From: a virus
UHGV virus genome: UHGV-1580312
DNA length: 16,913 nucleotides
Direction: 5' to 3' (one strand)
A program made the translations under genes and the position numbers. The stretch's first letter is position 1; each line of letters starts with the position of its first letter. Of this stretch, positions 225-14,955 are shown piece by piece. The notes under the pieces were generated by a model that did no database searches, was not told the DNA's origin, and saw only the letters and a program-made list of their open reading frames with translations.

Positions 225-692
225 ATGCTTAAGACAAACAGTCTGCGAGAGTCCATGCTTCATGGGTGTCGGTGGTGCCAGGCTAATCCCGAGAAATTCA
301 CCATTTTCGTGGAGAGCGGCAACATTGAAACGACCGGAGAAGCGCCCTCGTTTGTTTACCGCTATCAGATGGTGATGTTTGTCATGGATTACGCCGGAGA
401 GCTGGACGACCTCACGCTGCCGCTGCTGGCGTGGTTATCCGAAAATCAGCCACAGTTGTTGCTCAATCCGGAGCGTAATCAGGACATCAAATTTTCTGCC
501 GTTATCAATGACGATGACAGCGCCGATCTCCTGTTTACGCTCCCCCTGCGGGAACGCGTTCGCATCACGCGCAACAGTCAGGGCACACCGCAGGCAGAAC
601 ACCTGCCGGAGCCAAAACCCCGTCTGCCCTCTTCCGAAGGCGACTGGTCGCATGTATTCCAGGATGTGACGTGGGGTGAAAGCGATGGATAA
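225..692 (+). CDS. R: Tail completion protein, P2 gpR-like
   Basis: 155-aa ORF with ATG start and AGGAGA-like SD upstream. Size, position directly before an S-like gene, and sequence character fit P2 gpR. Its stop overlaps the next gene's start. Confidence 0.75.
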   Translation: MLKTNSLRESMLHGCRWCQANPEKFTIFVESGNIETTGEAPSFVYRYQMVMFVMDYAGELDDLTLPLLAWLSENQPQLLLNPERNQDIKFSAVINDDDSADLLFTLPLRERVRITRNSQGTPQAEHLPEPKPRLPSSEGDWSHVFQDVTWGESDG

Positions 693-1320
693 GGCATTCA
701 CCAGCGTGGATGAAACCTTTGAGGCTATCCGCGACAGCCTGAATCAGCAGGCCATCAATAACATCGCCAGAAAGCTGGCACAGGATTTACGTCGCGCCCA
801 GCAGGCACGTATCCGATCACAAAAAGCGCCGGACGGGACCGAATGGACACCACGCAGACGCCGCGTAACCCGGATACAGGAGCGCATTCGCTTTATCTGG
901 AATAACGAAGCACGCACGCTGAAAAACTGGCATCACGACACGGGGAAATACGGGCGAACCATTACCGGGTGGGATGAGGATAAAAACAATATCCGCACGT
1001 TTTACCGGGATGACATCGACCGTTTTCTGGAAATACGCACCCGGCGCATCAACCAGGACAGCACAAAGCGCGTCCCCATGTTTGTAAAACTGCGCACCGC
1101 CCGCTACCTGAAAGCCCGTGCAGATGCTTCCGGTGTGACGGTGGGTTACAGCGGCGTGGCCGCACGTATTGCCCGCGTTCATCAGTTCGGTGAGCGCGAT
1201 CAGGTTGCGCCGGGCATTTTCACCGATTACCCGGTACGTGAGCTGCTGGGTATCAGCCAGGCAGATGAGCGCCTGATTTATAACACGGTGCTGGGCCGGA
1301 TTGCGGAGGCTGTACGGTGA
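676..1320 (+). CDS. S: Virion morphogenesis / tail completion protein, P2 gpS-like
   Basis: ORF in the R-S-V position. The listed start is GTG at 676; an ATG at 685 overlaps the R stop (ATGGATAA) and may be the true start. The 3' end overlaps the gpV start (GTGA). Confidence 0.7.
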   Translation: MKAMDKAFTSVDETFEAIRDSLNQQAINNIARKLAQDLRRAQQARIRSQKAPDGTEWTPRRRRVTRIQERIRFIWNNEARTLKNWHHDTGKYGRTITGWDEDKNNIRTFYRDDIDRFLEIRTRRINQDSTKRVPMFVKLRTARYLKARADASGVTVGYSGVAARIARVHQFGERDQVAPGIFTDYPVRELLGISQADERLIYNTVLGRIAEAVR

Positions 1321-1898
1321 GCGCAGAACTCATGCGACTGCTGAGCAATATCATCCGCACCGGGATCATCTCTGAAGTTGATGAGAAGTCCTGGCGCGTG
1401 CGCGTTCGCAGCGGCGAACTGGAAACAGGCTGGCTGCGCTGGAACACCACGCGCGCGGGAGCCTTCAATGTGTGGCTGCCGCCATCACCAGGCGAACAGG
1501 TGGTAATTGCCTGCATTGGCGGCAACCCGGAAACCGCCATGATAATTGGCAGCCTGTGGAGTGATGCCAGTCCGGCCCCCGGCAAAAGCCTGAAAGAAAT
1601 CGTGATCAGCGCGCCGGACGGCGCGGTGTTCCGCTACGACGCAGACGCTGGCGCACTGAGCGCCAGCGGCATGAAAACGGCCACTTTACAGGCATCCGTC
1701 AGCGTGAAACTGGACACGCCCGTCGTGGAATGCACAAACCTTCTGAGAACGGCGACGCTTGACGTCACAAAAGGAGGAAAGATGAGCGGCAATATCACGC
1801 ACAGCGGCGGCAACTTCACCTCAAACGGCATCACAGTGCATACGCATAAACACGGTGGCGTGAAAGGCGGCAGCGATTCGACAGGAGGCCCGCAGTGA
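1317..1898 (+). CDS. V: Baseplate central spike protein, P2 gpV-like
   Basis: 193 aa. The N-terminus (...NIIRTGII...) and a C-terminal Gly-rich tip carrying HTHKH (HxH metal-binding-type motif) are typical of P2 gpV spike proteins. GTG start overlaps the S stop. Confidence 0.85.
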   Translation: MSAELMRLLSNIIRTGIISEVDEKSWRVRVRSGELETGWLRWNTTRAGAFNVWLPPSPGEQVVIACIGGNPETAMIIGSLWSDASPAPGKSLKEIVISAPDGAVFRYDADAGALSASGMKTATLQASVSVKLDTPVVECTNLLRTATLDVTKGGKMSGNITHSGGNFTSNGITVHTHKHGGVKGGSDSTGGPQ

Positions 1899-2245
1899 CA
1901 ACCCGCTACACAGGAATGAATCCGGACGGGACGGGAAACCTGAACGATATGGAGCACCTGAAACAGTCAGTCAGGGATATCCTGATCACCCCGCTGGCAA
2001 GCCGGGTTATGCGACGGGAATATGGCAGCCTTGTGCCTGATTTGATTGACGAACCCATGAATAACACAACTCGTCTGCAATGCATGAGTGCTGCCGTGAT
2101 TGCGCTGACACGATGGGAACCCCGCATTGCCCTGGACGCCATCGACGTTGTCTGGAAGGCAGGAGGCCGCGCCGGGGTGACGCTGTCGGGCACTGTCATG
2201 CAGACCATGCAGAATGTTGAATTAACCATCACGCTGAGAGAGTAA
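1895..2245 (+). CDS. W: Baseplate wedge protein, P2 gpW-like (GPW/gp25 family)
   Basis: 116 aa with N-terminus MTTRYTGMN..., the correct size for gpW/gp25-like proteins. GTG start overlaps the V stop (GTGA); synteny V-W-J. Confidence 0.85.
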   Translation: MTTRYTGMNPDGTGNLNDMEHLKQSVRDILITPLASRVMRREYGSLVPDLIDEPMNNTTRLQCMSAAVIALTRWEPRIALDAIDVVWKAGGRAGVTLSGTVMQTMQNVELTITLRE

Positions 2246-2248
2246 ATC

Positions 2249-3145
2249 ATGCCTGCTGTTGACCTTTCCCAGTTACCGGAACCCGCCATCATCGCGAAGC
2301 CTGATTTTGAGGCAATTCTGGCTGACACAAAGGCCATGATGATTGCGTCCTATCCTGCCGAACAGCGTGAAGCCGTCTCCGCCGCGCTGGAGCTGGAATC
2401 GGAACCCCTGAACGTTATCGCTCAAACCATGTCTTTTCGTGAAATGCTGTTACGCCAGCGGGTTAACGAGGGCGCACGCGCCTGCATGTTAAGCCACGGT
2501 TCAGGGACAAACCTGGACAACCTCGCGGGCAATATGAACACAAAGCGCCTGGTTATCACTCCGGCAACGGATACCACCGACGCGGTGATGGAGAGCGACA
2601 CCTCGCTGAGATTGCGGGCGCAACGGGCGTATGACGGCCTGAGTGTTGCTGGCCCGTCAGGTGCATACGAGTATTTTGCACGCAGCGCCAGCGGTCTGGT
2701 GCGTGATGCGCGGGCCATCAGCCCGTCTCCGGCCTGTGTGACGGTTTCCATCCTGTCCACTGAAGGCGACGGCACAGCAACGGAGGCGTTGCTTAATACC
2801 GTTCGCGCCGTTCTGAATGCAGAGGATACCCGCCCGGTGGCCGACCGCCTGACCGTACAGAGCGCCAGAATCGTGACATGGCGGCTGAATGCAAAACTGT
2901 ACTTTTACCCCGGCCCGGAATCCGAACCTATTCTGGCCGCGGCTGAATCGTCGTTCAGGAAGTGGCTGGCTGAGCAGGGGCTTATCGGTCAGGACGTGGC
3001 GTTGTCCGCCATTGCTGCCGCACTGCATGTGCACGGTGTGCAACGCGTGGAGATAATCGAACCCACACAGAATATGGCCATCAGCGACATACAGGCGGCG
3101 CGCTGTGAGTCATTCACCATCAGCGAAGGTGGACGCAATGAGTAA
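2249..3145 (+). CDS. J: Baseplate assembly protein, P2 gpJ-like
   Basis: 298 aa, ATG start preceded by GAGAGAG, in the W-J-I position. Its stop overlaps the gpI start. Confidence 0.85.
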   Translation: MPAVDLSQLPEPAIIAKPDFEAILADTKAMMIASYPAEQREAVSAALELESEPLNVIAQTMSFREMLLRQRVNEGARACMLSHGSGTNLDNLAGNMNTKRLVITPATDTTDAVMESDTSLRLRAQRAYDGLSVAGPSGAYEYFARSASGLVRDARAISPSPACVTVSILSTEGDGTATEALLNTVRAVLNAEDTRPVADRLTVQSARIVTWRLNAKLYFYPGPESEPILAAAESSFRKWLAEQGLIGQDVALSAIAAALHVHGVQRVEIIEPTQNMAISDIQAARCESFTISEGGRNE

Positions 3146-3746
3146 TTCGTTGTTACCACCATCAGCCAGCAATTTCATGCGTTGTGCCGAAGCCGTCGGA
3201 ACACGCATTACAGACATTCCGGTAGACCTCAACACGCTGTGGTCGCCGGACACCTGCCCGGTGCATCTGCTGCCTTATCTCGCCTGGGCGTTTTCCGTTG
3301 ACCGCTGGGATCGCAACTGGCCGGAAGAGACAAAGCGACAGGTGATTCGTGATGCATGGCTGATACACCGACACAAAGGGACCATCAGCGCACTGCGAAG
3401 AGCCGTGGAGCCTCTCGGCTACCTGATTGAAGTAAAGGAGTGGTGGCAACTCAACGAGGAGCCGGGAACATTTCGCATTGTTGTCGGAGTACTTGATCAG
3501 GGCATCACCGATGAAATGCATCAGGAACTTGAGCGCCTTATTGCGGATGCAAAACCAGTAAGTCGCCATCTGACGGGGCTGGCGATCAGCCTGAGTGTGA
3601 ACGGAAAGATTTTCGTTGGTACGGGATGCTATCACGGCGATGCCCTGACGGTTTATCCCTACACCCCGGAGTCCATTATTGTCGAAGGGGACTATTTCCC
3701 TGCCCCGGCCATTCATTTAATTGATAATCTGAGAGTAAACGCATGA
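3138..3746 (+). CDS. I: Baseplate/tail protein, P2 gpI-like
   Basis: ATG at 3138 preceded by GAAGGTGGA and overlapping the J stop (ATGAGTAA). The ORF-track start at 3105 lies inside J and is less likely. The stop overlaps the H start (ATGA). Confidence 0.8.
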   Translation: MSNSLLPPSASNFMRCAEAVGTRITDIPVDLNTLWSPDTCPVHLLPYLAWAFSVDRWDRNWPEETKRQVIRDAWLIHRHKGTISALRRAVEPLGYLIEVKEWWQLNEEPGTFRIVVGVLDQGITDEMHQELERLIADAKPVSRHLTGLAISLSVNGKIFVGTGCYHGDALTVYPYTPESIIVEGDYFPAPAIHLIDNLRVNA

Positions 3747-5308
3747 CAGTGAAATACTACGCTATTCTGACTAATCAGGGCGCGGCACGACTGGCTAACG
3801 CGACGATGCTCGGCAGTAAACTGAATCTGACGCAAATGGCCGTTGGTGATGCAAATGGTGTGTTACCAACACCAGACCCTGCACAAACAAAACTGATTAA
3901 CCAGAAACGCATTGCACCGCTGAATCTTCTGAGTGTTGACCCTAACAATCAGAGCCAGATTATTGCGGAGCAAATCATCCCTGAAAACGAGGGAGGATTC
4001 TGGATCCGTGAGATTGGTCTTTATGATGATGAAGGTGCACTCATTGCGGTGGCAAACTGCCCGGAAACGTACAAACCGCAGTTGCAGGAAGGCAGTGGAC
4101 GCACCCAGACTATCCGCATGATTCTGGTTGTCACGAACACCGAAGCCATCACGCTGAAAATCGACCCGTCTGTGGTTCTGGCAACCCGCAAATATGTGGA
4201 TGATAAAATATCAGAGCACGAACAATCACGACGTCACCCGGACGCCTCGCTGACCGTAAAAGGTTTTACTCAGTTAAGCAGTGCAATTAACAGTGAATCA
4301 GAAACACTGGCCGCAACACCGAAAGCGGTTAAGGCTGCATATGACCTGGCTAACGGGAAATATACCGCCCAGAACGCCACCACTACACAAAAAGGGATTG
4401 TTCAGCTCAGTAGCGCCACGAACAGCACGTCTGAAACGCTGGCAGCGACACCAAAAGCTGTTAAGGCGGTAATGGATGAAACGAACAAGAAAGCACCATT
4501 AAACAGCCCGGCACTGACCGGAACGCCAACAACACCAACAGCGCCACAGGGGGCTAATAGTACCCAGATCGCAAGCACGGCTTTCGTTATGGCCGCGATT
4601 GCCGCACTTGTAGATTCGTCACCTGATGCACTGAACACGCTGAACGAACTGGCTGCGGCGCTGGGCAATGACCCGAATTTTGCGACCACCATGACTAACG
4701 CGCTTGCGGGTAAGCAACCGAAGAATGCCACCCTGACGGCGCTGGCGAAGCTTGCTACATCAGCAGATAAACTCCCATATTTTACAGGGGCAGATCGTGC
4801 CGCGTTAACCGCGTTGACAAGTGTTGGACGTGCCATTCTTGGTAAAACCAGCACTCAGGGAGTTCTTGATTACCTTGGTTTGGGGGAAGGTTCTGCGCTG
4901 CCTGTTGGTGTGCCCGTTCCGTGGCCCTCAGCAACACCACCAACGGGCTGGCTGAAATGTAACGGCGCAGCATTTTCTTCTGAAATGTATCCCGGACTGG
5001 CAAAGGCTTACCCCACCAATAAATTACCGGATTTACGGGGTGAATTTATCCGTGGCTGGGATGATGGGCGCGGGATTGATGCGGGACGTACCCTGCTTTC
5101 AGGGCAGGATGGTACAAGTTTTTCTCATTACGGAGGTAATTTCGACATTGGGTCTGGTCATTCAATCAATAACTATGACCAAATTGTTTCTAACCAACCA
5201 AGCTTTTCCCGTTTTTCATTTGCAGGACCTTCACGAGGTGATGGGGTCAATTATGTAACCATTCGTCCTCGTAATATTGCGTTTAATTACATCGTAAGGG
5301 CAGCATGA
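3743..5308 (+). CDS. H: Tail fibre protein, P2 gpH-like; constant N-terminal/shaft region fused to variable C-terminal cassette V1 (from about 4877)
   Basis: 521 aa. N-terminal and central regions (tandem ...QLSSATNSTSETLAATPKAVKA... repeats, ...ALTALTSVGRAILGK...LDYLGL) look like P2 H / Mu S constant regions. The reading frame passes through crossover site s1 into a ~140-aa tip domain with the PDLRGEFIRGWDDGRG collar-like motif, ending ...RPRNIAFNYIVRAA*. Confidence 0.85.
   Translation: MTVKYYAILTNQGAARLANATMLGSKLNLTQMAVGDANGVLPTPDPAQTKLINQKRIAPLNLLSVDPNNQSQIIAEQIIPENEGGFWIREIGLYDDEGALIAVANCPETYKPQLQEGSGRTQTIRMILVVTNTEAITLKIDPSVVLATRKYVDDKISEHEQSRRHPDASLTVKGFTQLSSAINSESETLAATPKAVKAAYDLANGKYTAQNATTTQKGIVQLSSATNSTSETLAATPKAVKAVMDETNKKAPLNSPALTGTPTTPTAPQGANSTQIASTAFVMAAIAALVDSSPDALNTLNELAAALGNDPNFATTMTNALAGKQPKNATLTALAKLATSADKLPYFTGADRAALTALTSVGRAILGKTSTQGVLDYLGLGEGSALPVGVPVPWPSATPPTGWLKCNGAAFSSEMYPGLAKAYPTNKLPDLRGEFIRGWDDGRGIDAGRTLLSGQDGTSFSHYGGNFDIGSGHSINNYDQIVSNQPSFSRFSFAGPSRGDGVNYVTIRPRNIAFNYIVRAA
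4863..4888 (+). other. Serine-invertase crossover site s1 (hix/gix-like, 12-2-12)
   Basis: TTCTTGATTACC-TT-GGTTTGGGGGAA. The left half matches the classical hixL left half (TTCTTGAAAACC) at 10 of 12 positions. It lies exactly at the constant/variable boundary of H (codons L-G-L-G). Confidence 0.7.
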
Positions 5309-5327
5309 AAACGTTGGTTTGGGGGAA
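5302..5327 (+). other. Serine-invertase crossover site s2
   Basis: AGCATGAAAACG-TT-GGTTTGGGGGAA. The right half and central TT are identical to s1. The TGA stop of H/V1 (5306-5308) lies inside the left half-site. Confidence 0.65.
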
Positions 5328-5852
5328 GGCTCTGCACTGCCCGTTGGTGTACCTGTTCCGTGGCCCTCAGCCACTCCACCAACGGGCTGGCTGAAATGCA
5401 ACGGCGCAGCATTTTCTCCTGAAGATTACCCCAAACTGGCACAGGCTTACCCCGCGAACAAATTACCGGATCTACGGGGTGAATTTATCCGTGGCTGGGA
5501 TGATGGACGTGGCTTGGATGCTGGGCGTGCCTTGCTAAGTCTTCAGGATGACTCTTTTGAAGCGCACAGGCATGAGTCCTTTTTTTATGCGGGTATTTCA
5601 CGTAATGAGATCCCATTAAAAAATCTTCCAAGTTCAGACGAGATGCTGACTTTAAGTTCCACAACTAATGCCTTGTCCCCGGACGATATTGATGCCACCA
5701 ACTCGTTAATTGGTAATGACGATTACAACTGTCTTATCGAAGGGAATAAAAATAACAAACGAACAGCGACAGGACTGAGTACCAGTATTGTCGGCACAGC
5801 AGAAACACGCCCCCGCAACGTTGCATTCAATTACATCGTAAGAGCCGCATGA
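5316..5852 (+). other. Silent alternative tail-fibre C-terminal cassette V2 (no start codon or promoter of its own)
   Basis: The frame opens at the crossover site with GEGSALPVGVPVPWPSATPPTGWLKCNGAAF...PDLRGEFIRGWDDGRG, about 90% nucleotide identity to the V1 5' block by eye, then a divergent core, then the conserved ...RPRNVAFNYIVRAA* end. The only start available is TTG with no SD. Confidence 0.75.
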
Positions 5853-5871
5853 AAACGTTGGTTTGGGGGAA
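5846..5871 (+). other. Serine-invertase crossover site s3
   Basis: CGCATGAAAACG-TT-GGTTTGGGGGAA. The V2 stop TGA (5850-5852) is embedded in the left half-site. Confidence 0.65.
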
Positions 5872-6339
5872 GGCTCTGCACTGCCCGTTGGTGTGCCTGT
5901 TCCATGGCCCTTAGCAACACCACCAACGGGCTGGCTGAAATGTAACGGTGCAGCATTTTCTTCTGAAATGTACCCCAAACTGGCAAAAGCCTACCCCACT
6001 AATAAATTACCGGATTTACGCGGAGAATTTATCCGTGGCTGGGATGATGGGCGAGGAATTGATGCGGCACGCGCTTTATTGAGCATTCAAAACGGGATGT
6101 TGGAAAAACACCGCCATATTGTTGTAGCTAACGATGGATATGACACAAAAGATGAATGGGAGTTGGCTACGATTTTCAAAAAAACATATACACAAGGCAG
6201 GGGGCTTGATGCCACAAATACAGGAGGGAGTTTGATTCCATCACCAACGCTTCATTCACGAGGAAGTATTGGTAACACAGGTGGTAGTGAAACCCGCCCC
6301 CGCAATATTGCATTTAACTATATCGTGAGGGCGGCTTAG
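5860..6339 (+). other. Silent alternative tail-fibre C-terminal cassette V3
   Basis: Same conserved 5' block (GEGSALPVGVPVPWP...) and 3' end (...RPRNIAFNYIVRAA*) as V1/V2 with a different central core. No ATG or SD. Confidence 0.75.
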
Positions 6340-6345
6340 TTATAT

Positions 6346-6957
6346 TCAACTGGCTGCTGCCAGTGGTATTTCCGGCAAGTTGATATCTGGTACCATGTTT
6401 ATATCCATTGCGTTCAGCGCGTCTATATAATCCAGCACGGCATTAAGCCGGGTGGTTTCTGCCTGCGTCAACTTCCGCCCGGCCTGCAACTTCAACTGAA
6501 TCAGACTTATGGAAGCCATTGCCGCATCAGCCAGTGACTGGCGCTTGGTTTCTGCCGCTTCTACTGCGGCACGATGTTGTGCCTCAGTATCTGTCACCCA
6601 TTTTTCACCATCCCATTTATCGTATGGTGTTAACGGGGCGATAGTGGTTGTAGTTTTCGGGTAGTCACCCAGCGCCGTGATTTCTTCGGTGTTTCCCGTG
6701 TCAGTGCTATAGACGGTTTCACCACGATGGTCTGGCGCATACTCCCATGAACTTAAATTCTCCGAACGGCGGATAGCATAGCCCGCTTTATGTGCGCCCG
6801 GGGCATCTAAACAGGAATTTGCCGGAATACCGACACCCACAGCAAGATATTCAGTTGATTCGGAAATATATTCCCGTGTCTCACCATCATAGTTATAAAC
6901 GACGATGTTTCCTGCCTGTACGGCAATAAGGTCATCATTTAATATCGCGTTATTCAT
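6346..6957 (-). CDS. Tail fibre assembly chaperone (Tfa / P2 gpG / Mu U-like)
   Basis: 203 aa. The C-terminal half (...KWDGEKWVTDTEAQHRAAVEAAETKRQSLADAA...) has the character of Tfa-family chaperones. Its ATG overlaps the V4 stop (TAATG), so it is translationally coupled to V4 and co-oriented only with V4. Confidence 0.75.
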   Translation of the reverse strand: MNNAILNDDLIAVQAGNIVVYNYDGETREYISESTEYLAVGVGIPANSCLDAPGAHKAGYAIRRSENLSSWEYAPDHRGETVYSTDTGNTEEITALGDYPKTTTTIAPLTPYDKWDGEKWVTDTEAQHRAAVEAAETKRQSLADAAMASISLIQLKLQAGRKLTQAETTRLNAVLDYIDALNAMDINMVPDINLPEIPLAAAS

Positions 6958-7418
6958 TATGCGGTTCTCACAATATAATTGAAGGCAATATTGCGTGGGC
7001 GGTTTTCATTCCCATCTGAGGATTCCGTTCTGTATTGACTGGTAAATCTACCGTTAATTGCACCTTGCCGGACGGCGTTATCTGTCGACAACAGACTATC
7101 CCCTCTTTTGTCATTTGGCACCAGTACCGTGTTATCCCACGCATCCCATGACCGAATATTATGATAATGACTTCCTGTTAACCACCCCTGCATGCTTAAG
7201 ATGCCCCTTCCGGCATCCACCCCGCGCCCATCATCCCAGCCACGGATAAACTCACCGCGTAAATCAGGTAATTTTAACGTTGGGTAAACCTTTGCCAGAT
7301 TTGGGTACATTTCAGAAGAAAATGCTGCACCGTTACATTTCAGCCAGCCCGTTGGTGGTGTGGCTGAGGGCCATGGAACAGGCACACCAACGGGCAGTGC
7401 AGAGCCTTCCCCCAAACC
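6957..7418 (-). other. Silent alternative tail-fibre C-terminal cassette V4, inverted orientation
   Basis: The minus-strand frame gives ...NENVGLGEGSALPVGVPVPWPSATPPTGWLKCNGAAF...PDLRGEFIRGWDDGRG...RPRNIAFNYIVRTA*. The only upstream start is TTG with no SD. Confidence 0.75.
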
Positions 7419-7432
7419 AACGTTTTCGTTTT
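7407..7432 (-). other. Serine-invertase crossover site s4 (inverted relative to s1-s3)
   Basis: The minus strand reads AAAACGAAAACG-TT-GGTTTGGGGGAA, the same core as s2/s3. It lies 55 bp upstream of the invertase start on the opposite strand. Confidence 0.65.
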
Positions 7433-7486
7433 TATCCCTACCTATACCAACTATGTATTTTTCACGAAACAAAGAGGATGTTTTTT

Positions 7487-8086
7487 ATGCAAATTGGCTA
7501 TGTTCGTGTGTCAACAAATGACCAGAACACGGATTTACAACGCAATGCACTGAACTGCGCAGGATGTGAACTGATTTTTGAAGATAAAATCAGCGGAACG
7601 AAATCAGCCAGACCGGGATTGAAAAAACTGCTCAGAACGCTATCAGAAGGAGATACGCTGGTTGTCTGGAAGCTGGACAGACTGGGCAGAAGTATGAAAC
7701 ACCTGATCACGCTTATTGAGGAATTGCGGGAAAAAGGTGTTAATTTCCGTAGTCTGACGGACAGCATTGACACATCAACACCCATGGGGCGTTTCTTTTT
7801 TCACGTCATGGGGGCTTTAGCCGAAATGGAACGTGAATTAATTGTAGAGCGTACACTGGCCGGGCTGGCAGCAGCACGCGCACAAGGACGCATTGGCGGA
7901 CGTCGCCCGAAGTTGACAAAAGAACAACACGAGCAAATAGCGAGGCTGATTAAAAACGGTCATGACAGGAAACAACTGGCGATCATTTACGACATCGGCA
8001 TATCGACGATTTATCGTTATCACCCTGTAGGCGATATACAGGCTGAAGAAACAACCAGGCAGACTCAGGAAAATGAAAACCGCTAA
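7487..8086 (+). CDS. Site-specific serine DNA invertase (Hin/Gin/Cin/Pin/Min family)
   Basis: ATG at 7487 preceded by AAAGAGGA. The N-terminus MQIGYVRVSTNDQNTDLQ carries the catalytic Ser motif; ...GDTLVVWKLDRLGRSMKHL...FRSLTDSIDTS...MGALAEMERELI...GRIGGRRPKL and a C-terminal HTH are near-identical in pattern to Gin/Hin. The in-frame 5' extension to 7280 in the ORF track is antisense to cassette V4 and not credible as coding. Confidence 0.9.
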   Translation: MQIGYVRVSTNDQNTDLQRNALNCAGCELIFEDKISGTKSARPGLKKLLRTLSEGDTLVVWKLDRLGRSMKHLITLIEELREKGVNFRSLTDSIDTSTPMGRFFFHVMGALAEMERELIVERTLAGLAAARAQGRIGGRRPKLTKEQHEQIARLIKNGHDRKQLAIIYDIGISTIYRYHPVGDIQAEETTRQTQENENR

Positions 8087-8105
8087 TCTGACCATTAGCG
8101 GTTTT
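8076..8105. terminator. Bidirectional hairpin terminator shared by the convergent invertase and gpU genes
   Basis: Perfect 12-bp inverted repeat AAAACCGCTAAT-ctgacc-ATTAGCGGTTTT, with an A-run on one side and a T-run on the other. The invertase stop TAA (8084-8086) lies in the left arm. Confidence 0.5.
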
Positions 8106-8112
8106 GCGTTAA

Positions 8113-8607
8113 TCAAAACAGCCCTTTAACGGAGCTGGCCGCGCTGTTAAGGGATGATGTGACCTTATCTTTGAAGCCGGACAGCATATCACTGAACGAT
8201 GAGGATTGCAGGCGCTCCCGCAAATCCTCATCACAGCGTTCAAGAGTCAGTGAAAACTCTATCTTTTTCGCCTTACCGTAGCGATCAAACTCGGAGCGGG
8301 TCGTATTCGTTCCGGTCAGGACATACATGCCGTAAATCTGCCCGACACCATCAATCAGAGGCCAGGGGCGTCCTGTATATGCCTGCGTGGTCAGCAACGA
8401 AAGCGACACTTCGCCACCTGTAATTTCAGGATAAAGCACACCAGAAAGAACGATGCGATCATCGCCTGCCCCGATATACTGCCAGCTTGCTGAACGGTTA
8501 ACGCGTTCATTTTTCACATGCCGCCAGCTTTTGTTTTGCTGTAACTGCTGATGCGGCAACGTACGCAGCTCAAAAACAAACATGCCGTAGATCATCATCA
8601 TGGCCAT
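8113..8607 (-). CDS. U: Tail protein, P2 gpU-like
   Basis: 164 aa; the N-terminus M(A)MMMIYGMFVFELRTLP... and ...VLYPEITGG... resemble gpU. It follows the tape measure gene as in P2 (T then U). The true start may be one of the internal Met codons. Confidence 0.8.
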   Translation of the reverse strand: MAMMMIYGMFVFELRTLPHQQLQQNKSWRHVKNERVNRSASWQYIGAGDDRIVLSGVLYPEITGGEVSLSLLTTQAYTGRPWPLIDGVGQIYGMYVLTGTNTTRSEFDRYGKAKKIEFSLTLERCDEDLRERLQSSSFSDMLSGFKDKVTSSLNSAASSVKGLF

Positions 8608-8613
8608 GACTCC

Positions 8614-11457
8614 TCAATCTTTATCGTAAAAACTGCCACGCCCGGCACGGGCGCGCCGTTCCATTTCTGCCCTGACCATTTCACCGACCAGTTTCGCCAG
8701 TTCGCGGGGATTCTGCGTAACAACGTTATGCAGATGAACATGAATTTCACCACCAAATCCGGAGGCAACAGGCTCCCGGTTACGGGAAGTTACAGGAACT
8801 GATGCCACTGGAGATCGTATGGCCTCCGCCACCGGGCGGGAGCTGGCCGCAACAACAGGGACCAGCGCCGGAGGCAGCGGAGCCGGGACCACGGGGGTGA
8901 TATTCATTGCGGGGGCAGGCTTACTGACCTGTGCAATCTTCCGCTCCTGCCACTCCCCACGAACAGCAAGTGCGCGGGGCAGGTTCTTAAAGACAATATC
9001 GCCGGGGCCAATACGTTTTTTTGTCTCATCAACCAGCTTACCTGTGTTATCAGCAATTTTGCTGAGTCTGCGTAGCGTGCCGGTATTGCTGTCTGTGAGC
9101 GGTTTGTTGTCTTTGGGTTTATCGCCTCCGGTGCCATTGCCATTTTCCGCAGACTTCGGCGGATTGATTTTCGCAATGTCTCCCTGAAACAGAGCAACCT
9201 TGTCCTGAAGAATGGCCGCACGCTGTGCGTCTTCGATTTTCTTTCTCGCCCTTTCCGCTTCATCCGGAAGCACACCGAGTTTTTCAAGTATCCACGCCAG
9301 CGTATCCAGCAACATTTTTGCAGGCGTCAGAACAAGCTGTAGCGCGCCACCAAGAGCGTTACCGAATATCTCGCCAGCACTGGTACATTTATCCAGCGTT
9401 TCCTTGCTGGACTCCATCGGTGACAGCAGCGATTTAAACCAGTTAAACACCTGGCTGATCCCGCTTCCGATTGCGTCAAAAACAGGACCAAACCGTTCAA
9501 AGGTTTCACGCAACGGGTTCAGCCTTTCCATAATCCCGCTGAACACCCCGGCAAAAAATGCCCTGATGGGATCCCAGTATTTCCAGATAAGAACGGCAGC
9601 TCCGGCAAGCGCAGCCACGATAAGACCAACCGGACTGAACAGCGCCCCGATAGCGCCTCCCAGCAAAGAAACGGAACCCGTCACCATTCCCCACAGCGCA
9701 GGCAACACCCTGACGACATTCATTGACCGGGTAAGAATGTCAAAACCAAGACGCAGGGTGGCCAGCTTCCCGTAAAGCACCCCAATAACCAGTGACAACG
9801 AGCCAATCGTTGCAGTCATTGCCAGCAACGCACCGCCTGCTATCAGTAGCTGGCGCGTCAGTACCGGATGGGCCTGCGCCAGCGAGGTGATTTTTTCAAG
9901 CACCCGCGTGAGCCACTGCGTGACAGAACGCAGCGGACCGTCAACCAGATCACTGATGCGAATACGAAGACCTTCCCATGCGCTGTCGAGATTTTTCAGG
10001 TCCCCATCAAGATTATCGGCCATTACTTTTGCAACGCGATCGGCCTCTCCCCTTGCCCCCTGCAATTCTCTGGTCAGTTTTTGCAGCTCTCCTGAACCAG
10101 CCGCCGCAACAAGCGTCTGCAAACCAACGAACGCCTCTTCTCCGGCGATGTCCTTGAAGAAGGAGACCTGGTCCACCTGTCCGTATTTTTGTGTCGCCTT
10201 ATAGAGATCAAGCAGCACATCCTCCATCGGGCGCATTTTGCCTCTGGCGTCAGCAACTGACACCCCCAGCTCTTTCAGTGCATCAGCCGCAGCTTTTGGC
10301 GGTGATGCAAGGCGGGACAGACTTGCGCGCATGGCCGTGCCAGCATCGCTTCCGCGAAGACCATTATTGGCAAGCATCCCAGCCATAGCCGCCGCTTCTT
10401 CAAGACTGATACCAAGTTTTGCGGCAACCGGACCGGTATACTTCATGGTTTCGCCCAGCGCGCGTAAATCAGTATTGGTCCGGGTGAATGCCGCTGTCAG
10501 CGTATCGCCAACCCGGTCCATTTGATCGGCTGTCAGGTTGAACTGTGTGAGGATATTGGAGCCTATATCCGCCGTCTCGCCGAGTTCGACGCCACCTGCC
10601 AGCGCCATATTAAGAACACCGGGCAATGCGGCCTGAATGGCCTGCGGAGTAAAACCAGCCATTGCCAGAAAGCTCTGCCCACTGGCGGCATCACTCGCAG
10701 TAAACTGTGTTTCAGAGCCAAGTTTTAACGCCTGCTCACGCAGCGCCTTAAACTGCGGGCTGTTTTTGTCGATTCGCGTCAGTGCCTGAACGCGGGACAT
10801 CTCTTTGCCGAACCCGATCGCAGGCTGCAAAAAACGCCCGGCAGCATAGCCGCCCGCCGCTGCCGCACCAATTGCCAGCGCACCACCTGTTTTCAGTTTT
10901 CCCGCGGTTTCCTGCGCGCGCGAATACCGCTCACGCGCCCGCGTTACACGCGCAAGCGCCTGCCGTTCGCGTTCAAGCTGGTTGTTGTACTGTTCGGTGC
11001 GTCTGATGGCCTGCTGGATGGTGTTATCGCTGCCTGTCAGGGAAATGCCGTGGCGTTTCAGCTCTCCGCCAAGCTCCCGCATTTTCTGAATTTCCCGTGT
11101 GCGCGATTCATTCAGGCGTTCAAGCCGGGTGCTTAACTGCTGCATCAGCTTTTGTTGTTTTTCGCTGAGCACTGTACCCGTGCGTTGTAACTGATTAAGG
11201 GCGTTAAGCTGGCGTCGTGCTTTCACGATACCCGCATCCGCTTTACTGACAGCGTCGCGGGCGCGCTCAAATGATCGCGCCTGACGCTCGAGATTTTTGA
11301 TCGCCCCCTGCGTTCGCTGGATGGAGTCACCAAACTGCCCCATCAGGCGGCGGGCGTTTTCGGCAGGCCGGGTCAGCCTGTCAACGGCGCTGAAAGCGAC
11401 CCGGATATCAAGAGTCTTCATTGTCTGCATTCCCGCTGCGAAGTGCCGCCCGCTCAC
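8614..11457 (-). CDS. T: Tail tape measure protein, P2 gpT-like
   Basis: 947 aa with a coiled-coil-rich N-terminal half (many Q/R/E/L/A heptads), hydrophobic central segments and a Gly/Ala-rich region. Position between E' and U. The listed start is GTG at 11457; ATG alternatives are at 11430 and 11421. The 5' end overlaps the end of E'. Confidence 0.85.
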   Translation of the reverse strand: MSGRHFAAGMQTMKTLDIRVAFSAVDRLTRPAENARRLMGQFGDSIQRTQGAIKNLERQARSFERARDAVSKADAGIVKARRQLNALNQLQRTGTVLSEKQQKLMQQLSTRLERLNESRTREIQKMRELGGELKRHGISLTGSDNTIQQAIRRTEQYNNQLERERQALARVTRARERYSRAQETAGKLKTGGALAIGAAAAGGYAAGRFLQPAIGFGKEMSRVQALTRIDKNSPQFKALREQALKLGSETQFTASDAASGQSFLAMAGFTPQAIQAALPGVLNMALAGGVELGETADIGSNILTQFNLTADQMDRVGDTLTAAFTRTNTDLRALGETMKYTGPVAAKLGISLEEAAAMAGMLANNGLRGSDAGTAMRASLSRLASPPKAAADALKELGVSVADARGKMRPMEDVLLDLYKATQKYGQVDQVSFFKDIAGEEAFVGLQTLVAAAGSGELQKLTRELQGARGEADRVAKVMADNLDGDLKNLDSAWEGLRIRISDLVDGPLRSVTQWLTRVLEKITSLAQAHPVLTRQLLIAGGALLAMTATIGSLSLVIGVLYGKLATLRLGFDILTRSMNVVRVLPALWGMVTGSVSLLGGAIGALFSPVGLIVAALAGAAVLIWKYWDPIRAFFAGVFSGIMERLNPLRETFERFGPVFDAIGSGISQVFNWFKSLLSPMESSKETLDKCTSAGEIFGNALGGALQLVLTPAKMLLDTLAWILEKLGVLPDEAERARKKIEDAQRAAILQDKVALFQGDIAKINPPKSAENGNGTGGDKPKDNKPLTDSNTGTLRRLSKIADNTGKLVDETKKRIGPGDIVFKNLPRALAVRGEWQERKIAQVSKPAPAMNITPVVPAPLPPALVPVVAASSRPVAEAIRSPVASVPVTSRNREPVASGFGGEIHVHLHNVVTQNPRELAKLVGEMVRAEMERRARAGRGSFYDKD

Positions 11458-11937
11458 GCCAGCTAACCACTTCGCCGGGCGTCATCATGAAGATTTCGGC
11501 GGGCGACCAGTTAAAAATGGCGGCAATATCCGCCACAAAGTCTTCTATGTGCTCAAAGCACACAACCGTGATCAGGCTTCCGTCGCCTGTTCGCTCTTCC
11601 CGCCAGAGTCCGCACCGCTCAAAAAATTTACGGCAACCACACATAACTGAATAAAATCACGGGATGCCATTTTTTTGATCGTCACTTCATCCAGTCGTGG
11701 CGAGGTCACGCGTGACAGCAGCGTAAACATGGATTCCGCTTTCAGATTCAGCACATCAGACAGCGACAAATCTCGCAGAGATCCAGCCTGCTCAATAGCC
11801 CCGGTGATCTCCACATACGTGATTTTTTCGCCGCCTCGCTCAATTGGTTGGGTAAGTTTTACGCCACGCTCACTGGTTTCTTTCACAGTGTCAGTAACTA
11901 CCGTGTTTTCGGTATCGATGTTTTTCGTCTCTTTCAT
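11408..11937 (-). CDS. gpE+E' fusion made by programmed -1 ribosomal frameshift (E' extension ends at 11408)
   Basis: The -1 frame relative to E is open from the slippery site to the stop at 11408 (...FFERCGLWREERTGDG...). Slipping at T-TTT-TTG changes ...VNFLSG to ...VNFFERCG. The E' end overlaps the T start, as in P2. Confidence 0.65.
11572..11937 (-). CDS. E: Tail assembly chaperone, P2 gpE-like (frame 0 product)
   Basis: 121 aa; ATG at 11937 preceded by AAGGAG. It contains the TTTTTTG slippery heptamer near its 3' end and sits between the tube and tape measure genes. Confidence 0.75.
   Translation of the reverse strand: MKETKNIDTENTVVTDTVKETSERGVKLTQPIERGGEKITYVEITGAIEQAGSLRDLSLSDVLNLKAESMFTLLSRVTSPRLDEVTIKKMASRDFIQLCVVAVNFLSGADSGGKSEQATEA
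11620..11626 (-). other. -1 programmed frameshift slippery heptamer T TTT TTG (E/E')
   Basis: Read directly from the sequence: minus strand ...GTA AAT TTT TTG AGC... This is the same heptamer used by P2 E/E' and is analogous to lambda G/GT. Confidence 0.65.
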
Positions 11938-11991
11938 CAGGAAACTCCTTTCAGTCAGAGGCGACGCACTGCGCCGCCTGCATATTACTTA

Positions 11992-12504
11992 TCAGCCAAG
12001 CCCGAGCGCGGAACGGATGCGATCGGGCACAATGTCCTTGCCGTCCTTCCGGTAGATGTGGTTCAACAGGTCGATTTCCCACAGCGGGCGATCGTTAACG
12101 CTCAGCTTGTAGTAGGTGTTTTTGACAGCGTAAGTGTGTGATGTGGCTTCGCCCTGTTTGGCCTCCCCCATATCAATTTCCGTCACACGCCCGCGCATCT
12201 CGATTTCATACAGATCGCTTTCTGCATCGGTGTAGTATTCACCCGCAAAACGCAGCAGCGTGCCGTCAATCGTGCCGCCATATTTAAGGAACAGCGCACG
12301 AACAGCTCCCCCCATGACAAAGCTCGCATCAAGCGCGGAGTCGTCCAGACCGAGATCAATACTTACCGCCCCCATCATGCCACCACCCCGGTAGCTGTCG
12401 GTTTTGCGCGTCAGCTTAGGCAGAGTGACGGACGTCACCTTACCCACTTCGTTTTCACCATCCACAAACAGCGTAAAAAAGCGAAGATGTTTTGGTACAG
12501 CCAT
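11992..12504 (-). CDS. FII: Tail tube protein, P2 gpFII-like
   Basis: 170 aa; ATG preceded by GGGAGG. The start overlaps the sheath gene stop (TGATG). Size and position are typical of gpFII. Confidence 0.85.
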   Translation of the reverse strand: MAVPKHLRFFTLFVDGENEVGKVTSVTLPKLTRKTDSYRGGGMMGAVSIDLGLDDSALDASFVMGGAVRALFLKYGGTIDGTLLRFAGEYYTDAESDLYEIEMRGRVTEIDMGEAKQGEATSHTYAVKNTYYKLSVNDRPLWEIDLLNHIYRKDGKDIVPDRIRSALGLG

Positions 12505-13688
12505 CAGGCACCTCCCAGCACCGCAAATGCGGGACCAAAGAATTCATCAGTAAACGTCTGGTAAAGCTCCATGTCTTCCAGTGGCGGAACGGGCGTATAT
12601 TTGTAGCGAATACGCACACGTCCCTGACGTAAATCCGTGGTGCCGTTATCCACCACGTCATACCAGCACTCCGCGCCAATCAGTTTCCCGGCAGTAACCA
12701 GCGAATCCAGTTTTGCCCTGATGGCACTGATAACATCCTTCACGTTCGCAGGCGTCAGTGGACTGTCGATGGTTTCAAACTGCGCTTCCGCAATTGAATC
12801 AGCCAGCACCTGTGCGGTTCGGGTATACACCTCAAAGATGTAGGCGTTCGTTTCCGGTGTGCGGTTGCCCCAGAAGCGGAACCCGTTGCGACGAATAATG
12901 GTCGTGATTTCTTTGTTGTTGAGGCTGTTGGCATCGCTGTCTTCGGCCTGCAACGACCAGAACACATGCCTGGACATCCCCAGCACATTTTTAACCGGAA
13001 CGTTGGACAGTGATTTGTGCCATCCCTGCTCATGGTCAATGTACGCACGAAGGCCGCACGCATAGGCAGGCGCGGGGAACGTTTCGTTTTTGCCACTTTT
13101 CGGGTTGTAGGCGATGAAGTCCGGCCATAAGAGCATCACCTCACGTTCGTTGAATTTCTGGCGGTAGGTAATCACCTCAGCCATCGTGTTACAGCCGTGA
13201 CATGAGGCATACACAAACGCGCGCAGTTTACCCGCAATCACGCACAGGGATTTTGTCACCGCCTCCGTGTCCAGCTCCGGCGCGGCCAGAATACGCGGAC
13301 GGTATCCGATGCTTTCATCCTGCTCTGCAACAAGCAGCGCATACATCCCCGTATAGCTGCCGTCAGATTCAGAACCACCGATAACCAGTTGATCCTGCGT
13401 CTTTCCGTCTTCTTCTTTGTGTTCAGCCACGCGAACGACGATCACCTTTGTGCTCACCTGGTCTGCGATGGCCTTAAGCGCACGATAAAGCGTCCCCGTT
13501 GTCCCGCATTTTCCCAGCACGTCATTGACGCGGGTCAGCAGTGTGGGCTTGTTCAGCGGGAACAGCTTCGCGTCCGCATCATCCGCCGTTGCCACGATAC
13601 CGATAACGCTGGAATCAACATCGTTAATCGCTGTTACCAGGTCGGTATTTTCCGTAACACGGGCACCATGAAAACGAGTTTCACTCAT
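12504..13688 (-). CDS. FI: Contractile tail sheath protein, P2 gpFI-like
   Basis: 394 aa; multiple blocks (...FPLNKP...LKAIADQ...PRILAAPELDT...KLRAF...WPDF...DHEQGWHKSLSNV...RRNGFRFWGNRT...YTRTAQV...YKYTPVPPLE...) match the sheath family pattern. Confidence 0.9.
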   Translation of the reverse strand: MSETRFHGARVTENTDLVTAINDVDSSVIGIVATADDADAKLFPLNKPTLLTRVNDVLGKCGTTGTLYRALKAIADQVSTKVIVVRVAEHKEEDGKTQDQLVIGGSESDGSYTGMYALLVAEQDESIGYRPRILAAPELDTEAVTKSLCVIAGKLRAFVYASCHGCNTMAEVITYRQKFNEREVMLLWPDFIAYNPKSGKNETFPAPAYACGLRAYIDHEQGWHKSLSNVPVKNVLGMSRHVFWSLQAEDSDANSLNNKEITTIIRRNGFRFWGNRTPETNAYIFEVYTRTAQVLADSIAEAQFETIDSPLTPANVKDVISAIRAKLDSLVTAGKLIGAECWYDVVDNGTTDLRQGRVRIRYKYTPVPPLEDMELYQTFTDEFFGPAFAVLGGA

Positions 13689-13845
13689 AGCTTTAGCCCC
13701 TTGTATCCGTTAAATGATTCGGCAACAATCATCACCCACCACGCGCGTAATCTCACCCCTGTGCCGTTCTCCCGATCCGGCGACAACAAAAAGCAGTAAC
13801 CCCCTCCGCACGCACATGCGACCATGCCGCACAGGGAGGGAACAG

Positions 13846-14955
13846 ATGACCGATACCACCATGCAATTGCTCAGTCAGGGCACAGACCCCGTGAAAATGC
13901 CGGATTTTGATATTCTCGCGGAGGGTAAAACGCTGTCAGGCGTGGCAGAGCGCCTGATGAGCCTGTCACTGACCGACAACCGGGGATTTGACGCGGACCA
14001 GCTCACCATCACGCTGGATGATGCGGATGGTCAGTTGCAGCTACCGCCACGGGGCGCGCGCCTGACGGTTCTCATTGGCTGGAAAGGAGAACCGCTGACA
14101 GAAAAAGGCACTTACATTGTTGATGAAATCGCTCACGAAGGACCGCCGGACAGGCTGACTGTTTCAGCCAGAAGCGCAGATTTTCGGGATGAATTTAACG
14201 TTAAACGTGAGGTGTCCTGGCATGATGTGACCGTTGAGCGTGTGGTATCCGCCATCGCTCATCGGTATGGTCTGAAACCGCAAATCAGCGAAATGCTGAT
14301 GGATATCGAAATCGACCACGCCGACCAGACCGAAGAAAGCGATATGTCCTTCCTTACGCGCATGGCGGAAATGCTGGGCGCAATCACCACGGTAAAAAGC
14401 GGCAATCTGTTATTCATCATGCCAGGTGGTGGCGTGAACGCACAGGGCCAGCCGTTGCCATCGTTCGCCATCACACGCAGCAGCGGCGATCGCCATCAGT
14501 TCCGCATTGCTGACCGCGAGGCGTATACGGGGGTACGCGCTTACTGGCTTGATCTTAATTACGGGAAAAAGAAAAAAGTCAGCGTGAAACGCCGCAAACC
14601 GCCAAAACCCAAAAAGGAGAAAAGCAGCAGCCGTGAAGGTGATTATATGGAAGGCGCGGAAGGCAATGTGTTTGTGTTACGCAAGACTTATCAGAACGAG
14701 CAGGCAGCAAGACGCGCAGCGGCGGCAAAGTGGCAGCAGCTACAACGCGGAGCCGCATCATTTTCCATCACGCTGGCGCGTGGACGTGCAGAACTCTACC
14801 CCGAAATGCATGGCACGGTAACAGGATTTAAAAGCGAGATTGATAATCAGGACTGGATTATTGCAAAAGCCGAGCACACCATTGATAACAGCGGCTTTAC
14901 CACGCAGCTTGAGCTTGAGGCAAAAATCCCGGAATGGATAGCAGAAACAGCGTGA
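13846..14955 (+). CDS. D: Tail/baseplate hub protein, P2 gpD-like (late control D family)
   Basis: ATG at 13846 preceded by GGGAGGG. Motifs ...SLSLTDNRGFDADQLTITLDDADGQ...ARSADFR...SWHD...ESDMSFLTR...ITRSSGDRHQF...YTGV...EGDYMEGAEGNVF...KWQQLQRGAASFSITLARGRA...SGFTTQLELE fit gpD-family proteins. The ORF-track start at 13714 is less likely. Confidence 0.8.
   Translation: MTDTTMQLLSQGTDPVKMPDFDILAEGKTLSGVAERLMSLSLTDNRGFDADQLTITLDDADGQLQLPPRGARLTVLIGWKGEPLTEKGTYIVDEIAHEGPPDRLTVSARSADFRDEFNVKREVSWHDVTVERVVSAIAHRYGLKPQISEMLMDIEIDHADQTEESDMSFLTRMAEMLGAITTVKSGNLLFIMPGGGVNAQGQPLPSFAITRSSGDRHQFRIADREAYTGVRAYWLDLNYGKKKKVSVKRRKPPKPKKEKSSSREGDYMEGAEGNVFVLRKTYQNEQAARRAAAAKWQQLQRGAASFSITLARGRAELYPEMHGTVTGFKSEIDNQDWIIAKAEHTIDNSGFTTQLELEAKIPEWIAETA

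Follow-up and report, generated by a model that had tools for sequence, protein, structure and literature searches.

Inversion of tail-fibre genes at more than two recombination sites has reportedly been on record since 1990, when the Min system of p15B (sequence X62121), which is said to contain six mix sites, was described by Sandmeier and colleagues. In the EPEC strain E2348/69, a prophage 'shufflon' was found in four coexisting variants by PCR (Goldberg et al., 2014; PMC4272514), and a two-site fibre switch, with inversion visible in PacBio reads, was reported for the E. coli EC958 prophage Phi2 (Forde et al., 2014; PMC4134206). The kind of system that we describe here is thus already known, and the same prophage module has already been seen switching in EPEC E2348/69.

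The window analyzed here is a single stretch of viral DNA of 16,913 nucleotides. Based on its sequence, the tail-fibre gene H module of the P2-like prophage in this window is very probably a Min-type (Din-family) multiple DNA inversion system (Table 1). As in other Din systems, a small serine recombinase with a resolvase domain and a C-terminal HTH adjoins the invertible DNA. More than two sites, overlapping invertible segments and several 3' cassettes for one fibre gene are characteristic of the Min type, as are the mix-like site sequences (compared with the p15B mix table) and the Min-like invertase. The invertase ORF is full length and contains the catalytic serine motif YVRVSTNDQ. A Min-type P1-like plasmid (locus L074), in which the site next to the invertase is mixM1''L', encodes an invertase identical to this protein at 175/181 positions (97%); the protein is 74% identical to P1 Cin and matches the Mu Gin structure 4m6f over residues 1-185 (E = 2e-91). 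Near the start of its gene, a stretch at the same gene position as the annotated P1 cin enhancer agrees with the latter at 57/72 positions (79%) compared to 67% gene-wide, the stretch being also conserved coding sequence. It carries two G-N13-C 15-mers spaced as in P1, a motif too loose to decide by itself, and is probably an enhancer with Fis sites.

Table 1. Features of the fibre-inversion module; positions refer to the whole window.
Feature	Position	Strand	Description
H constant N-terminal part (P2 gpH-like)	3743-4874	+	Pfam Phage_tail_fib 2e-62, Phage_fiber_2 6.5e-42
Crossover site s1	4863-4888	+	TTCTTGATTACC TT GGTTTGGGGGAA; within H reading frame; 26/26 to p15B mixQ''R'
Cassette A, now joined to H (521-aa fibre)	4877-5308	+	H ORF 3743-5308; collar domain; TGA 5306-5308
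Crossover site s2	5302-5327	+	AGCATGAAAACG TT GGTTTGGGGGAA; left half carries cassette A stop; 23/26 to p15B mixO''P'/mixP''Q'/mixN''O'
Cassette B, silent (predicted 556-aa fibre)	5316-5852	+	Pfam Collar 3.7e-14; TGA 5850-5852
Crossover site s3	5846-5871	+	CGCATGAAAACG TT GGTTTGGGGGAA; left half carries cassette B stop; 24/26 to p15B mixN''O'
Cassette C, silent (predicted 537-aa fibre)	5860-6339	+	Pfam Collar 4.9e-15; TAG 6337-6339 outside any site
Tail-fibre assembly (chaperone) gene, tfa	6346-6957	-	Pfam Caudo_TAP 8.9e-31
Cassette D, silent (predicted 531-aa fibre)	6957-7418	-	Pfam Collar 1.6e-14; TAA 6957-6959 (minus strand) outside any site
Crossover site s4	7407-7432	-	AAAACGAAAACG TT GGTTTGGGGGAA on minus strand; sole inverted site; 24/26 to p15B mixM1''L'
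Serine DNA invertase, Din family, Min-like	7487-8086	+	Pfam Resolvase 2e-51, HTH_7 1.4e-12
Putative recombinational enhancer (Fis sites), in invertase gene 5' end	7505-7576		Inferred from P1 cin enhancer alignment
Hairpin terminator between invertase gene and convergent gpU gene	8076-8105		12-pair stem, then T run

The four 26-bp sites are genuine recombination sites of the well-known Min kind. In the whole window and on both strands, the 14-mer TTGGTTTGGGGGAA occurs exactly four times (4875-4888, 5314-5327, and 5858-5871 on the plus strand, 7407-7420 on the minus strand), compared to a chance expectation for exact copies of about 1e-4 in 2 x 16.9 kb. The other core-like matches, one of them inside cassette A at about 5188-5213, contain two mismatches each and are at chance level. 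A search for mix-like sites where the oppositely oriented tail block 8113-13688 begins and ends found none. Aligned with published family sites, all four sites resemble mix sites (PMC3241671, Table 3) at 23 to 26 of the 26 positions. The alignment also confirmed an asymmetry pointed out in an earlier, sequence-only reading of this DNA: TT followed by GGTTTGGGGGAA is common to all sites and the left halves differ. The sites follow the Din format of two imperfect 12-bp inverted half-sites around a 2-bp core, in which the inner AAAC(C/G) / (C/G)GTTT is conserved across the family; the central TT is present in 4/4, and sites s1-s3 point in one direction and s4 in the other. Read as TTCCCCCAAACC, the right halves agree with the majority published half-site at 10/12 positions, whereas the left halves agree at 8/12 (s1) or 6/12 (s2-s4). 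The left half of s1 retains the outer TTC and has TTAC where the family has AAAC; those of s2-s4 retain the inner AAAC and have lost the outer TTC, and the core AAACGTTGGTTT is exact in these three sites.

To the right of TT, 184-195/215 nt are shared between sites. This homology stops abruptly to the left of TT (s1 and s4 match at 4/12 and then 4/24 positions), so that the sites form the left edge of repeats of 215-240 bp. These repeats are 85-92% identical and represent the conserved 5' ends of the four tail-collar cassettes. In a megablast search with 3743-8086 against the phage collection, no record covered at least 80% of the query; relatives were drawn from an E. coli genome collection and IMG/VR contigs and contain arrays of 2 to 13 sites. 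Across the E. coli relatives, the constant part of H is 98-99% identical, whatever cassette comes next. Cassette B is joined to H in L026 and L030, cassette C in L009, L048, and L041, and cassette D in L018, L031, and L032, and cassette A lies inverted beside the invertase in L004, L007, and L031. The ATG of tfa overlaps the stop codon of cassette D (TAATG at 6955-6959, minus strand). The four fibres in which H is joined to one of the cassettes probably recognize different receptors; for all four cassettes, the receptor specificity is an assumption.

Among the relatives, both orientations occur with exchange at the core, and the segments of natural isomers agree over their whole length from one TT to the next. 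L005 and L031 have identical flanks and both segments inverted, with 0 and 1 mismatches, and L048 and L063 share three segments that are 100% identical but rearranged; the assemblies compared come from different isolates and include draft contigs, and their repeats may be mis-assembled. The crossover intervals in the exact isomer pairs are 37 bp and 7 bp (TTGGTTT) long. Both contain TT, where the sequence-only reading had placed the crossover and away from which junctions would have spoken against it, and s1 is itself a published p15B mix site. Locus L005, from E. coli E2348/69, is the shufflon of Goldberg et al. (2014), and its published start coordinate, 1891695, is the central TT of s1 in L005. 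Simulated inversions of the window yielded 12 reachable isomers and four fibres. The same reading had expected inversion to create hybrid sites, but all 12 isomers hold only the same four 26-mers because only sequence on the right of TT is swapped by inversion and the right halves do not differ. Reassorted halves are visible only in relatives with polymorphic right halves.

The proposal that the TGA of a cassette lies inside the left half of the next site is borne out for cassettes A and B, i.e., for just two of the four. It does not follow that every rearrangement supplies a terminator. The stop lies to the left of the crossover point and is therefore part of its own cassette and moves along with it, and in 4/12 reachable isomers, those expressing C or D, translation stops outside any site. 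In the relatives, the same three positions of 65 cassette-end left halves are occupied by TGA (48), TAA (15), or TAG (2), with AAACG following in every case, and the six published p15B mix sites have the same pattern (PMC3241671). The stop codon sits at those positions that are most variable among published family half-sites. The small cassettes A and B are self-contained units, each composed of right half-site, cassette, and stop, then AAACG. The left half of the next site consists of the final codons of such a cassette, its stop, and five non-coding bases.

These features are consistent with the following mechanism. The invertase would bind the four sites, make cuts staggered by 2 bp at the central TT and, presumably assisted by a Fis-bound enhancer within its own gene, invert whatever DNA lies between two sites of opposite orientation. 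With s1-s3 in one orientation and s4 in the other, the first inversion would have to involve s4. Further inversions would then give rise to the 12 isomers, each of which joins the constant part of H in frame to one of the cassettes A to D. The left halves would be deliberately imperfect, by TTAC in place of AAAC in s1 and by the missing TTC in s2-s4.

Rearrangements between genomes could also arise by RecA-dependent homologous recombination between the inverted repeats, the 26-bp 'sites' being merely the repeat ends. The repeats are long enough for RecA, and the cassette 5' regions are mosaic, with right-half variants (GGTTTAGGAGAA and others) on different cassette types, as expected from gene conversion or homologous exchange. 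In the exact isomer pairs, however, the exchange can be narrowed to 7 bp and 37 bp at the very left edge of the repeat and never lies farther inside, and in the relatives, 18 entire 400-nt cassette starts recur without change behind at least two classes of left halves. Moreover, an intact Min-like invertase adjoins the array, and s1 is a known Min site. In the E2348/69 homologue, the minority orientation makes up 10-50% per colony, and the authors compute flipping rates far above random mutation (PMC4272514). We therefore regard RecA as a very improbable source of the inversions and favor site-specific inversion by the Min-like invertase. A link between one right-half variant and one cassette type was considered and rejected, as the same variant sits on A in one genome and on C or D in others. 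Such variants on differing cassettes point to additional gene conversion, and, since the cassette 5' ends are mosaic across genomes, homologous recombination or gene conversion evidently also acts on the repeats over evolutionary time.

The array might also be a frozen relic that does not switch, for example because the invertase is unexpressed in the lysogen or because weak half-sites stay unbound, leaving H-A as the sole fibre. The window itself bears no sign of activity, and the left halves of s2-s4 are far from the majority half-site. In a promoter scan of 6200-8700, the invertase lacked a convincing sigma-70 promoter (1 match compared to 3.6 in shuffles), a result that is uninformative on transcription of the invertase and of the minus-strand tfa. 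Against a relic stand the full-length invertase ORF with its serine motif, the identical cores in 4/4 sites, and the nearly identical E2348/69 module, which switches in standard growth (PMC4272514); the same weak left halves, moreover, are those of functional p15B mix sites. There is thus only a slim chance that the array is frozen, and the intact parts, together with the close homologues, make it highly likely that the module in this window is active.

It is plausible that the left-half asymmetry biases which site pairs invert, as the sequence-only reading had suggested, and this fits the published data. A further idea, which we consider rather doubtful, is that the coding overlap serves to set inversion rates and is more than mere compaction. 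With the final codons and the stop placed in the left half, cassette-end sites could be forced to keep the inner AAAC and do without the outer TTC, with s1 keeping TTC and a degraded AAAC. If so, three weak half-site classes would build a hierarchy into the inversions, fibre-changing inversions (involving s1) would proceed at a different rate from silent reshuffling (s2 or s3 with s4), and a lysogen population would contain a programmed, non-uniform mix of fibres. In E2348/69, the s1 x s4-type inversion was 90 ± 3% forward and the s2 x s4-type inversion 49 ± 37% (PMC4272514, Table S1), figures that are compatible with a rate-setting role and are no proof of it.

The discovery value of this locus is small, and its use lies mainly in annotation. 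'Phage tail protein' fragments following H would be read as silent alternative fibre tips and not as pseudogenes. The assembled orientation would be 1 of 12 interconvertible states, and therefore a host range or tailocin specificity read off one assembly would represent just one quarter of what the module can make. The comparative set, with its differing array sizes and its stops at fixed left-half positions, provides a useful account of how the cassette units are built.

Among the known systems, the R64 shufflon follows the same logic, in that several sites join alternative C-terminal cassettes to one constant gene. It relies on the tyrosine recombinase Rci, which acts on 19-bp sfx sites, and diversifies a pilus adhesin, whereas the sole recombinase of our module is a serine invertase, its sites are of the 26-bp Din type, and its target is a phage fibre. 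An R64-type shufflon was dismissed on account of the recombinase class, and R64 is an analogue, not a relative. Cin/cix of P1 and Gin/gix of Mu are closer. Both have a Din-family invertase and 26-bp sites in which the half on the side of the invertible segment does not vary from site to site, unlike the outer half. In P1, moreover, the central dinucleotide is TT, the enhancer lies near the 5' end of the invertase gene, as would the putative one of the window, and the fibre gene has a constant and a variable portion; the cin stop codon in the outer half of cixL is a precedent for a stop within a site. Unlike the window, both systems are limited to two sites and two isomers, a separate assembly gene (U and U') accompanies each alternative fibre part, and the invertases are 74% (Cin) or less identical to ours. 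EC958 Phi2 is likewise an E. coli prophage fibre with Phage_fiber_2 repeats and a collar-domain cassette, and its 26-bp sites have a central TT and the right halves GGTTTAGGAGAA / GGTTTGGGGGAA within imperfect inverted repeats of about 227 bp, but it has two sites only, with the left halves TCCTCAATTACC and GAGAGATAAACG.

The p15B Min system shares with the window more than two sites and hence overlapping invertible segments, a constant fibre 5' part with alternative 3' cassettes, and cassette-end sites in which a stop codon is followed by AAACG TT GGTTT. Sites s1 and s4 correspond to mixQ''R' (26/26) and mixM1''L' (24/26), and the likeness of the invertases runs through the Min-type P1-like plasmid (97%) and not through the p15B protein itself. 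The two systems differ in that p15B is a P1-like plasmid prophage with six sites and TAA as the cassette-end stop, whereas the window belongs to a chromosomal P2-like prophage (genes R-S-V-W-J-I-H) with four sites, 12 isomers, and TGA. The E2348/69 shufflon resides in the same P2-like prophage type and has a module about 97% identical to ours, comprising s1, an s2-type site, s4, cassettes A, C, and D, tfa, and the invertase. The window contains one extra unit, cassette B with s3, and therefore has 12 isomers and four alternative C termini, compared to four isomers and three C termini in E2348/69.

The window holds four exact copies of the 14-mer TTGGTTTGGGGGAA, on the plus strand at 4875, 5314, and 5858 and on the minus strand at 7407-7420, and these copies plus the 12 bases on their left give the 26-bp sites s1 to s4. 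What the sequence-only reading observed at these sites was right in every detail. The TGA of the open reading frame of H, the P2 gpH-like tail-fibre gene, lies in the left half of s2 (5306-5308) and that of the next cassette in the left half of s3 (5850-5852); the s1 left half TTCTTGATTACC is unlike those of s2-s4, and the central TT and right half GGTTTGGGGGAA are the same in all four sites. Right of the TT, the four copies are identical at 184-195 of 215 nt, whereas on its left the similarity between them is lost immediately, so that the sites form the left edge of repeats of 215-240 bp. Compared with the majority published half-site, the right halves (TTCCCCCAAACC) agree at 10 of 12 positions, the s1 left half at 8 (the outer TTC is kept and TTAC replaces AAAC), and the s2-s4 left halves at 6 (AAAC is kept and the outer TTC is lost). 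The stop codon occupies half-site positions 5-7, inside the stretch that varies most among published sites (positions 4-7). Within the variable portion of cassette A, positions 5188-5213 hold a weak Din-like quasi-site, TTCTAACCAACC-AA-GCTTTTCCCGTT, which departs from the inner core at two positions; with three equally good matches elsewhere in the window, it is probably a chance match.

Positions of the crossover sites, cassettes and neighboring genes, and of paired fibre-constant left halves on two related contigs
Feature	Position	Strand	Description
s1	4863-4888	+	TTCTTGATTACC-TT-GGTTTGGGGGAA
s2	5302-5327	+	AGCATGAAAACG-TT-GGTTTGGGGGAA
s3	5846-5871	+	CGCATGAAAACG-TT-GGTTTGGGGGAA
s4	7407-7432	-	AAAACGAAAACG-TT-GGTTTGGGGGAA
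Cassette A	4877-5308	+	in-frame fusion to H
Cassette B	5316-5852	+	silent
Cassette C	5860-6339	+	silent; own TAG 6337-6339, outside any site
Cassette D	6957-7418	-	silent; own TAA 6957-6959, outside any site
Tail-fibre assembly gene (tfa)	6346-6957	-	Caudo_TAP; after D, ATG overlapping D stop
Serine recombinase, 199 aa	7487-8086	+	Resolvase + HTH_7; start 67 bp past s4
gpR, gpS, gpV, gpW, gpJ, gpI, H	225-5308 (H 3743-5308)	+	R-to-H block
gpU, tape measure, tube, sheath	8113-13688	-
gpD	13714-14955	+
DUF3800 protein gene, 389 aa	15047-16216	-	just past gpD, opposite strand
TTCTTGATTACC on L057	56, 1921	+, -	inverted pair
TTCTTGATTACC on L029	3954, 5959	same strand	direct pair

Each site is followed by a cassette of 143-178 aa with a Phage Tail Collar domain. 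Cassettes A-D share their first ~78 residues and last ~14 (RPRN[IV]AFNYIVR[AT]A) and differ in the middle; by analogy with the family, they would be expected to differ in receptor specificity. Simulating every inversion between oppositely oriented sites, with the cut at the TT, we reached 12 isomers, which express four fibres (A, 521 aa; B, 556 aa; C, 537 aa; D, 531 aa). The sequence-only reading had expected inversion to create hybrid sites, but all 12 isomers carry the same four 26-mers, and hybrid sites cannot accumulate because only DNA right of the TT is exchanged and the right halves are all identical. Nor does rearrangement supply the terminator, as had been proposed: the stop lies left of the crossover and moves with its own cassette, and in the four isomers expressing C or D it lies outside any site. 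The window has one tfa gene for all cassettes, and 6 of the 12 isomers place it and H on opposite strands; the P1-like plasmid L074, which has 13 sites, likewise has a single tfa gene (5436-6047). Either the small cassettes are chaperone-independent, or the same Tfa works for every cassette via the common C-terminal RPRNIAFNYIVRAA motif.

Sites and cassettes were also mapped in 10 E. coli loci and 62 IMG/VR stretches containing the s1 left half. Comparing assemblies of different isolates, partly draft contigs, we found that one locus (L031) shows the E. coli E2348/69 arrangement after complete inversion between s1 and s4: its flanks are identical, and its two inverted segments carry 0 mismatches and 1 mismatch. 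The change of partner is bounded here by the final left-half base and base +36. A second pair of loci (L048 and L063) has the same flanks and three TT-to-TT segments that are 100% identical and changed in order and orientation, which places the switch between the left half's last base and base +6, a 7-bp interval (TTGGTTT). A check for junctions elsewhere found none in the isomer pairs, and these intervals support the site, with its proposed crossover at the central TT. In the full set of loci, 18 cassette starts, exact over 400 nt, stand behind at least two of the left-half classes (fibre-constant, cassette-end, invertase-side), and each of the 65 cassette-end left halves has TGA, TAA, or TAG at one fixed position, followed by invariant AAACG. 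Relatives with polymorphic right halves (GGTTTAGGAGAA, GGTTTGGGAGAA, and others) show reassorted left/right combinations at 14 of 41 left flanks, as ordinary products rather than a new class. The usual partner of the fibre-constant left half is the invertase-side left half; on two IMG/VR contigs, L057 and L029, the fibre-constant one occurs twice.

The E2348/69 locus is ~97% identical to the window and lacks cassette B and s3. In this P2-like prophage, a "shufflon" with three inverted repeats and four PCR-confirmed variants has been described (Goldberg et al., 2014; PMC4272514). The published repeat begins ACCTTGGTTTGGGGGAA, and Table S1 of that study lists inversions at NC_011601.1 1891695-1893703 and 1892127-1893703; the first start coordinate, 1891695, coincides exactly with this locus's central TT of s1. 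In that study, the large inversion was 90 ± 3% forward and the small one 49 ± 37%, and the earlier idea that unequal left halves bias partner choice is reasonable, compatible with these values, and plausible. EC958 prophage Phi2 carries a two-site relative whose inversion is visible in PacBio reads (PMC4134206).

Homologous recombination across the long repeats could in principle also act here, and the mosaic 5' ends of the cassettes show gene conversion over evolutionary time. However, it leaves unexplained that exact isomers always break only a few bases into the repeat, that switching rates in E2348/69 are high (PMC4272514), and that s1 is identical to a known Min site. It is also possible that the module is a frozen, inactive relic in this host, but no part of it shows any sign of decay.

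Many matches to E. coli chromosomes and P1-like plasmids start exactly at s1 (query 1130-1133, window 4872-4875), and in the plasmids identity is 90-93% over the stretch from s1 through the invertase. On these alignments, P2-like prophages and P1-like phage-plasmids appear to have swapped the whole inversion module, its boundary being s1. The cassette 5' ends (first 75 nt, L001-L073) are mosaic: one 5' haplotype can accompany more than one cassette type, and, depending on the genome, right-half variant GGTTTAGGAGAA sits on A, C, or D. Such mosaicism suggests that, besides site-specific inversion, gene conversion or homologous exchange takes place between cassettes. Arrays among relatives range from 2 to 13 sites (6 in L058 and L069, 8 in L014, 13 in L074), and some cassette types are duplicated in one array (x2 twice in L014). 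Direct repeats of ~280 bp (family D1) span every junction, and unequal crossing-over at them would allow units to be added or removed.

The gene content of the window is that of a P2-like tail module. The sheath/tube/tape-measure/gpU block and the R-S-V-W-J-I-H block lie on opposite strands, with gpD back on the plus strand; in canonical P2, all of these tail genes run in one direction. The E. coli relatives have the same opposed-block layout as the window, and a search for mix-like sites at the borders of the opposed block (8113-13688) found none. The DUF3800 gene may be prophage cargo.

The module belongs to the Min type of multiple inversion systems and sits in a P2-like prophage. Of the six mix sites given for plasmid p15B among the Din-family sites in Table 3 of PMC3241671, mixQ''R' equals s1 (26/26), mixM1''L' and mixN''O' match s4 and s3, respectively, at 24/26, and three match s2 at 23/26 each. 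The p15B cassette-end sites GGCA-TAA-AAACG and CACA-TAA-AAACG carry a stop codon at the positions of the window's TGA. The invertase is identical at 175 of 181 residues to that of plasmid L074, which has 13 such sites and whose invertase-side site is mixM1''L'; it shares 74% identity with P1 Cin and matches Mu Gin structures (E = 2e-91). Nucleotides 7505-7576 agree at 57/72 with the annotated P1 cin enhancer at the same gene position, against a gene-wide identity of 67%, which is suggestive of a candidate recombinational enhancer; Fis dependence would be expected from what is known of the family. The two cix sites of P1 are, as in the window, alike in the segment-facing half and unlike in the outer half, and the cin TAA sits inside the outer half of cixL. 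Because P1 has the same pattern, half-site asymmetry and the overlap of stop and site are normal features of the family. Such modules were already described as a family for p15B in 1990, and for this prophage lineage in EPEC in 2014.
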